A DNA stretch of 15,227 nt. It comes from a virus (Duplodnaviria > Heunggongvirae > Uroviricota > Caudoviricetes). The stretch lies in the IMG/VR virus record IMGVR_UViG_2740892422_000006, positions 1 through 15,227 of that record; one strand, given 5' to 3'. The notes under the pieces are model-generated. The model was not told the origin of the DNA, did no database searches, and saw nothing but the letters and a program-made list of their open reading frames with translations. The translations under genes were made by a program, and so were the position numbers. Shown here in pieces: positions 10,124 through 10,960 of the stretch. Each line of letters opens with the position of its first letter. Positions within the stretch are counted from its first letter, which is position 1.

Positions 10124-10480
10124 TTATTCAGTTCTTGATTTTGTCGCCCTGCGTATCCGCGCTTTCGCGTTACGCTCAATCTGAATTAGCTTTTCTATAT
10201 TTTTCCGCCTTTCCTGTTCCTCCTGGAGCAATAACCTTACATCATCTGCCAGTCTGGTTTCTCTTTTCGCCACAGAGAGCATCCAGTCAAATGGCTCCAC
10301 AACTGCACCGCAGATTTTACAGCGGACCTGACGCTCTTTTTCGTCAACCCGGACAGAGGCGTGATGGCAATATGGTCTTTCCGATGGCTCATAAAGAAAA
10401 TTAACCTGATTACGAGGGTCATCCTCTTTTATCGGAAATAAAACGATATTGTTTAACTAATCCTCTGGTTTTATTTCCAT
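10124..10480 (-). pseudogene. Zinc-ribbon/coiled-coil protein gene interrupted by an in-frame TAG at codon 8 (or needing a frameshift from an upstream GTG ORF)
   Basis: Strong SD (GGAGAGGAG) then ATG at 10480, 7 codons, TAG at 10457-10459, then 110 open codons (YCHH...RCKICGAVVEPFDW...EEQERRKNIEKLIQIERNAKARIRR). A 41-codon GTG ORF (10416-10541) in the -1 frame overlaps the junction. Confidence 0.35.
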
Positions 10481-10537
10481 GCTCCTCTCCTTTGATGCGA
10501 ATGCCAGCGGCAATTGAAGCCTGATAGCTAATTTCAC

Positions 10538-10960
10538 TCACAGTACCGCCTCCTGAAAATTACCCTGATAGAAAGCCAGTACACGCTGCATAGCTTCGCT
10601 CTTCCGGCACTCGCGACAGATTATATTCAGGCGCCTGTCGTAGCGGCGTATTTCTCCGTCTGGTAATGACCAGATAAGGTCCGGATCAACCGCAGATGGT
10701 TTCTTCAGCTTTGCCCTTGAGAGCTTTTTACGGGCGTTTTGCCAGTCTTTACGTGCCTGCTCCGACGGGAATAACCCGCAGCCAGAGTTGTATACATCGC
10801 CACTGGCAACCAGCTCTCTGGCGAGAACACTCATCAGATATCTTGTTGCCCCAGTTTTAGCTTCCAGTTGTCGTAACGTCTCGCGCCCACTCTGGCGTAC
10901 GAGTTCAAGAACCTGCCCTTTAATTTTTTCCCGCTCTTCTTGTGTAAAAACTTTTGCCAC
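10538..10960 (-). CDS. Hypothetical phage protein (140 aa), basic, with C-terminal CxxC (ICRECRK)
   Basis: GTG start at 10960 preceded by AGGAGG (4-nt spacer); function not recognised. Confidence 0.5.
   Translation of the reverse strand: MAKVFTQEEREKIKGQVLELVRQSGRETLRQLEAKTGATRYLMSVLARELVASGDVYNSGCGLFPSEQARKDWQNARKKLSRAKLKKPSAVDPDLIWSLPDGEIRRYDRRLNIICRECRKSEAMQRVLAFYQGNFQEAVL
10549..10564 (-). repeat. Copy 1 of a 16-nt direct repeat CCTCCTGAAAATTACC (minus strand GGTAATTTTCAGGAGG) embedding an SD
   Basis: Identical 16-mer also at 10965-10980; each lies immediately upstream of a GTG start on the minus strand. Confidence 0.6.

Follow-up and report, generated by a model that had tools for sequence, protein, structure and literature searches.

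The gene at 10124-10480 (minus strand) of the window, by which we mean the whole 15,227-nucleotide stretch of viral DNA that was analysed, very probably represents a small conserved gene, part of the early-right operon in a lambdoid E. coli prophage of Qin/Rac-like type, in an allele that a nonsense mutation has disabled and that is now decaying, with no recoding involved. In its intact form, the gene starts at the ATG at 10480, preceded by its own Shine-Dalgarno (SD) sequence, and encodes a protein of 118 aa in which a conserved acidic motif at the N-terminus is followed by a zinc ribbon (Cys-His-Cys-Cys) and, towards the C-terminus, a long helix. At 10459, a single G>T transversion has turned Glu8 (GAG) into an amber codon (TAG), upon which ribosomes would release a 7-residue peptide and the full protein would not be made; the same base change has cost a short upstream remnant open reading frame (ORF) its TGA and left it 40 codons long. 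The gene is a commonplace case of a nonsense pseudogene within a resident prophage, and some RefSeq genomes already list it as a pseudogene. It has little biological weight, being another accessory gene on its way out of a resident prophage, and it illustrates how one base can mimic a recoding site by making a stop in one frame and removing a stop in an overlapping one.

The amber codon interrupts a member of a conserved protein family

On the minus strand, the beginning of the gene reads AAAGGAGAGGAGC-ATG(10480) GAA ATA AAA CCA GAG GAT TAG(10459-10457), and translation of the same frame continues after the TAG for 110 sense codons until a TAA at 10126-10124. The strong SD, the ATG at 10480, the seven codons, the TAG and the 110 open codons described in the original prediction, which had been made from the letters alone, are all there in the sequence. 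The conserved ATG thereby opens no uninterrupted ORF in the window copy, as the TAG occupies codon 8 (10457-10459, minus strand); the mutated base, 10459, is a T on the minus strand where the alignments and a 41-mer census place an ancestral G. The SD region belonging to this ATG, AAGGAGAGGAG (10482-10492, minus strand), is kept in another genomic context, that of phage ArgO145, where SD and ORF are conserved together and homology begins ~30 nt upstream of the ATG.

When codon 8 is restored, the 118-aa product matches the family phrog_1621 end to end (E 4e-56, residues 1-117), and the open frame after the TAG is therefore not a product of chance. Members of the family, such as WP_000403785.1 and ArgO145 gp17 (YP_009907882.1), are prophage proteins of 114-132 aa, with homologues in Escherichia, Shigella, Salmonella, Klebsiella, Kluyvera, Yokenella, Serratia, Pluralibacter, Yersinia and Erwinia, and the corresponding 461-bp region was found in 1934 of 5426 complete E. 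coli genomes (about a third) as well as in 12 phage records. In an alignment of 56 homologues, residues M1, F15, C38, H40, R50, C54 and C57 are invariant, E6, E8, N11 and P16 are nearly so, and the C-terminal helix KLIQIERNAKARIRR is strongly conserved. Glu8, the residue replaced by the stop, is kept in at least 90% of these 56 members from several genera; the N-terminus as a whole (E6, E8, N11, F15, P16) is conserved within the Enterobacterales, in homologues from Escherichia, Klebsiella, Kluyvera, Serratia, Yersinia, Erwinia and Salmonella, and none of the aligned homologues from other genera is interrupted by a stop at codon 8. The restored window product shares the N-terminal motif, the C38/H40/C54/C57 ligands, all four of which are present in the reading frame of the window, and the helix KLIQIERNAKARIRR; it departs from the family in being broken at codon 8 and in the substitution R85L, at a position that is conserved in at least 90% of the members.

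The AlphaFold (AF2) model of the protein (mean pLDDT 72.7) consists of two beta-hairpins (residues 43-61) and one long helix (63-117). The Pfam profile Zn_Ribbon_TF (PF08271, TFIIB-type) matches residues 36-73 below threshold (21.5 bits, against a cut-off of 29 bits), and the best Foldseek match in the PDB is the N-terminal ribbon of TFIIB (27 columns, rmsd 1.9, E 0.27). Together with the helix of the model, these hints make the earlier reading of the product as a zinc ribbon followed by a coiled coil a reasonable one. In contrast to the TFIIB-type ribbon, the first ligand pair of the family is C-x-H rather than CxxC, and the likeness is that of a shared small fold, which says nothing on shared function. 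No Foldseek match in the PDB or BFVD reached E <= 0.001, searches with the intact protein against NCBIfam, PADLOC and a PDB sequence profile gave no significant match, and no paper came up in the literature under the protein accessions or the PHROG identifier. The intact family, widespread and uncharacterised, could merit functional study in its own right, separately from the stop codon.

The amber codon is a minority allele

Where relatives read GAT GAG TTA in the alignments, the window reads GAT TAG TTA. An exact search of complete E. coli genomes with a 41-mer across the site found the TAG version in 91 records and the GAG version in 1192 (~1430 records match with at most a mismatch or two), which puts the amber codon at about 6% of E. 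coli copies. The comparison with orthologues in related prophages that had been proposed as a check on the original prediction thus returns an intact frame, with GAG at codon 8, and the situation that had been named as refuting it, in which all orthologues share the stop and nothing is conserved downstream, is not the one encountered. All phage and prophage copies read from other contexts carry GAG and are annotated as a 357-nt CDS; the intact orthologue is likewise annotated as a 357-nt CDS from the ATG in the genomes L003, L004 and L012-L018. Two linked variants in the 5' part of the gene, ATA17 and TGC38, are common to all TAG copies and also occur in one intact copy (L003), a pattern that fits a single origin of the TAG followed by spread and downstream recombination. 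The isolates with the TAG allele come from pig, human, bird and water and are geographically widespread, and the allele has therefore persisted for some time, a point that speaks against the pseudogene reading.

The overlapping ORF is a by-product of the same base

The original prediction had also described a GTG-initiated ORF overlapping the junction in the adjacent frame, launched by one copy of a repeated SD element. The ORF is real and does lie in the adjacent frame, but it ends at 10419, and the end at 10416 given for it was off by 3 (10419-10541, minus strand). Its GTG at 10541, preceded at 7 nt by an AGGAGG, overlaps with the TGA that ends the upstream DUF977 gene. The repeated element is real as well: TCAGGAGGC stands at 10556-10548 and at 10063-10055, twice in the window against 0.07 expected, and both copies are ribosome-binding sites of neighbouring genes.

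Base 10459 serves two codons at once, as the first position of codon 8 in the gene and as the second position of codon 28 in the GTG ORF. One G>T change accordingly converts GAG into TAG in the gene frame and TGA (10460-10458) into TTA in the adjacent frame, and the GTG ORF grows from 27 to 40 codons. Since this one base sits in both frames, the 40-codon alternative-frame ORF is a by-product of the codon-8 mutation, an artefactual extension of a 27-codon remnant. In every copy with the GAG allele the ORF has 27 codons, VSEISYQASI[A/T]AGIRIKGEEHGNKTRG followed by the stop, and the length of 40 codons is confined to TAG copies. The last 16 codons, AGIRIKGEEHGNKTRG up to the stop, are identical to the C-terminus of the Ea22-like genes that lie upstream of the zinc-ribbon gene in phage ArgO145 and in the prophages of strains E2865 and 7/2, and in these three contexts the GTG start is absent. 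From the point at which homology to ArgO145 begins and from the shared AGIRIKGEEHGNKTRG tail, it follows that the transferable module comprises the tail of the upstream gene, the SD and the ATG ORF. As judged from these comparisons, what the GTG ORF represents in the DUF977 context is a recombination remnant and no gene. We considered it as a real small gene and rejected this, as its start is not conserved and its length changes with the allele. It has no match in Pfam or NCBIfam; it does match phrog_37408 and phrog_19884, which appear merely to collect such gene calls.

The databases also hold proteins of ~200 aa (P0003, P0006 and P0041) in which an Ea22-like N-terminal part (PF13935) is fused to the zinc-ribbon protein, at 95-97% identity. 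Their sequences suggest that, in other prophages, a 1-nt indel at this gene junction may have brought the two parts into one frame.

Copies with the amber codon are decaying

We read nine copies with the TAG allele, that of the window included, and ten with the GAG allele. Secondary disabling lesions were, among the copies read, confined to TAG copies. In three of the nine, the codon of the invariant zinc ligand Cys57 has become a second stop (TGC>TGA; L006, L009 and L011), one has a +1 frameshift (L002), and two have R108W together with I95T (L007 and L008). Six TAG copies (L006-L011) share A105G and A112V, R85L is found in the window and in L001, and S10N in the window only. Private nonsynonymous and synonymous variant types number 9:3 in the TAG set and 5:13 in the GAG set (Fisher p = 0.024), in a comparison of small sets (nine and ten copies) in which variant types were counted without a phylogeny. 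Against a neutral expectation of 0.79 nonsynonymous, the TAG set fits (p = 0.71) and the GAG set is rejected (p = 5e-6). One substitution at a conserved position, R110C, occurs in intact copies as well and counts against a clean contrast in decay.

The copy in the window has no second disabling lesion. Since S10N and R85L are its only further changes, its inactivity is something that we infer, and it is only the young evolutionary age of the lesion that leaves its 110 downstream codons looking open. The decay of accessory genes in other resident or defective lambdoid prophages of the Rac/Qin type takes the same course, in which one point mutation is followed by stops, frameshifts and radical substitutions, and there is no substantial difference between those cases and the present one, apart from the oddity that an overlapping remnant ORF gains length through the same base change.

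R110C was seen in the intact (GAG) copies of L015, L017 and L018, at a position that is invariant in the wider family. Going by this substitution, some GAG alleles that look intact may be functionally impaired too.

One lesion has been annotated in inconsistent ways. In four genomes with TAG copies (L002, L006, L009 and L011), PGAP places a pseudogene flag on the gene model that elsewhere gives a 107-aa protein, whereas in the TAG genomes L001, L007, L008, L010 and L019 it lists two hypothetical proteins, one from the 40-aa GTG ORF and one from a 107-aa CDS that starts at an ATC codon (Ile12; 10445-10447, minus strand, in the window; CDS 1614-1937 in L001, with equivalents in the other four). 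Both the 40-aa and the ATC-start 107-aa protein most likely arose as artefacts of annotation, and the same applies to the small PHROG families into which such calls have gone. A single pseudogene call would be more accurate than the pair of 40-aa and 107-aa proteins, or than phrog_37408 and phrog_19884.

Alternative explanations of the in-frame stop

A single-base difference from the common allele is what would be seen if the window contained a sequencing or assembly error, with a true base of G and an intact gene, yet this is extremely improbable: the identical TAG occurs in 91 complete E. coli records that come from unrelated projects and were independently assembled, which is why we do not regard it as a one-off sequencing error, it occurs in the closest relatives of the window (99.8% identity), and it travels with lineage-specific linked variants. 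If the base is genuine, the gene could conceivably work in truncated form, with reinitiation after the TAG at the ATC at 10447 or at a nearby codon giving a 107-aa protein with both ribbon and helix. The zinc ligands and the helix are indeed intact in the window, and PGAP annotates exactly this ATC-start CDS as a protein in several genomes (WP_236301450.1 and relatives). ATC, however, is a very poor initiator in E. coli. There is no in-frame ATG, GTG or TTG between the TAG and codon 61, the nearest SD-like sequence, AGAGGA, lies 13 nt upstream of the ATC and is badly spaced, and the product would be devoid of the conserved E6/E8/N11 motif. The loss of the zinc ligand Cys57, the shifted frame and the substitutions at R108 and R85 that occur among the TAG copies are, moreover, unlike a retained function, and we consider a working truncated protein very unlikely. 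One could also speculate that the TAG is a leaky, attenuated allele, in which basal UAG readthrough or reinitiation at the ATC at 10447 would provide only traces of a protein that does harm in full amounts, and which would be kept for this down-tuning in a successful lineage; to this we assign a very low probability.

Programmed recoding, by amber readthrough or by a +1 shift of ribosomes from the GTG at 10541 within the A/T-rich stretch 10456-10419 to give a fusion protein, was the other of the two possibilities left standing by the original prediction. Its attraction lies in the good SD of the GTG ORF and the GTGA overlap with the upstream gene, in the zinc-ribbon frame being +1 relative to the GTG ORF, and in the 110 downstream codons that are still open in the window. 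The stop, though, is a minority allele (91 against 1192 records); the GTG ORF of the ancestral GAG allele stops at codon 28, before 10456, so that no zero-frame ORF reaches the proposed shift region; the GTG start is missing from the other contexts of the gene; a fusion would swap out the conserved N-terminal motif; and in TAG copies the codons after the stop show neutral decay. Folding of the RNA beyond the TAG is no more stable than that of its shuffles (MFE -16.4 kcal/mol, z = -0.37), Rfam has no match in the region, and by eye neither the GGA-TGA end of the ORF nor the T- and A-runs offer a prfB-like CUU-UGA re-pairing. The anticodons found by ARAGORN in the window are aac, tcc, tgt, ttt and cat, with CUA absent; a link to a suppressor tRNA, for which we consulted both ARAGORN and Rfam, was dropped, and the original prediction had rightly dismissed a connection with the atypical tRNA on the same grounds. 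One long ORF in the window (14690-14355), itself only predicted, ends in TAG. With prfB-type +1 frameshifting, readthrough and phage TAG reassignment, the window thus has a superficial likeness, which consists of an in-frame stop soon after the start, an overlapping ORF in the +1-entry frame, and phage-borne tRNA genes in the same element. True programmed recoding goes with a stop or shift site that orthologues share and with purifying selection on the frame downstream of it. The window differs in its 6% stop allele, in having no ancestral zero-frame ORF, in its downstream decay and in the absence of a CUA tRNA, and since the testable defining features are lacking, its gene is outside every recoding class. 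We accordingly give recoding next to no probability. The first of the two original possibilities, the nonsense pseudogene, is the one that stands, with GAG as the norm, a conserved Glu8 and further lesions in its favour; the second, readthrough or frameshift, falls with an unconserved stop, a GTG ORF that is a by-product, the missing CUA tRNA and the missing fold.

Prophage context

The window covers the immunity, replication, nin and Q region of a Qin/Rac-like lambdoid E. coli prophage, and contains the Qin/Rac hallmarks DicF, dicB, ydfB/C, YdaT, DUF977/YdaW and hokD/sok. The gene order runs from DicF, dicB and ydfB/C through the repressors and YdaT to the replisome organiser (12077-11001) and the DUF977/Ren-like gene (10960-10538), followed by the nonsense pseudogene, the DUF7167 gene (10032-9859), a kinase/PP2C cassette on the opposite strand and hokD/sok, and ends with DUF968, RusA, Q, the tRNA genes and the lysis genes. 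The upstream neighbour (10538-10960, minus strand) is a DUF977 or Ren-like gene of the YdaW type (Pfam DUF977, E 7e-30; phrog_142, E 1e-47), the TGA of which overlaps the GTG of the remnant ORF; the name LygF that appears among the phage hits is a property of this gene and not of the zinc-ribbon gene. For the downstream neighbour (9859-10032, minus strand; Pfam DUF7167, E 7e-15), the ribosome-binding site is the second TCAGGAGGC copy. A scan of 9800-11100 for promoters and terminators gave nothing above shuffle expectation. None of the complete E. coli genomes matches the window in full, the nearest being porcine ETEC strains with ~98% identity over 68-78% of it.

Several other features of the region deserve mention. 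The sRNA DicF (14693-14744, plus strand; Rfam, 77 bits) and the antitoxin RNA sok (7690-7864, minus strand; Rfam, 112 bits), which adjoins the hokD position of a relative, are both typical of Qin-type prophages. Between DUF7167 and hokD/sok, and on the strand opposite to the early-right operon, a Ser/Thr kinase (8105-8899, plus strand) overlaps a PP2C phosphatase (8883-9599, plus strand) by 17 nt. The kinase matches three defence-kinase models of PADLOC, mad6, PD-T4-6 and Stk2 (E 1e-37 to 3e-25), and the inserted pair resembles a moron-type defence cassette.

Among the tRNA genes, the one at 4622-4698 (minus strand; 44 bits in Rfam), which ARAGORN assigns to Lys with the anticodon ttt, has the anticodon loop CCTTTAA, with a C at the usual U33. 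At 3739-3820 (minus strand) lies an 82-nt degenerate copy of this odd tRNA with the same acceptor and T arms, called Val aac by ARAGORN and with no Rfam match. In the closest relative, the equivalent gap is left unannotated by PGAP. A further tRNA at 4700-4775 (minus strand) is Met(cat) according to ARAGORN and tRNA-Ile according to PGAP in the closest relative, its CAU being presumed lysidine-modified.

Most relatives have a small hairpin between the pseudogene and the DUF7167 gene, GGAGGG-ATTTCTGC-ACCCTC, and at its position the window has a run of 8 G (10077-10084, minus strand) in place of the hairpin loop ATTTCT. The next hairpin after the G run, GCCGCCC-GAAA-GGGCGG, is altered in the window too. 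Since the closest relative, L001, has 7 G at the corresponding position, the G tract varies in length.
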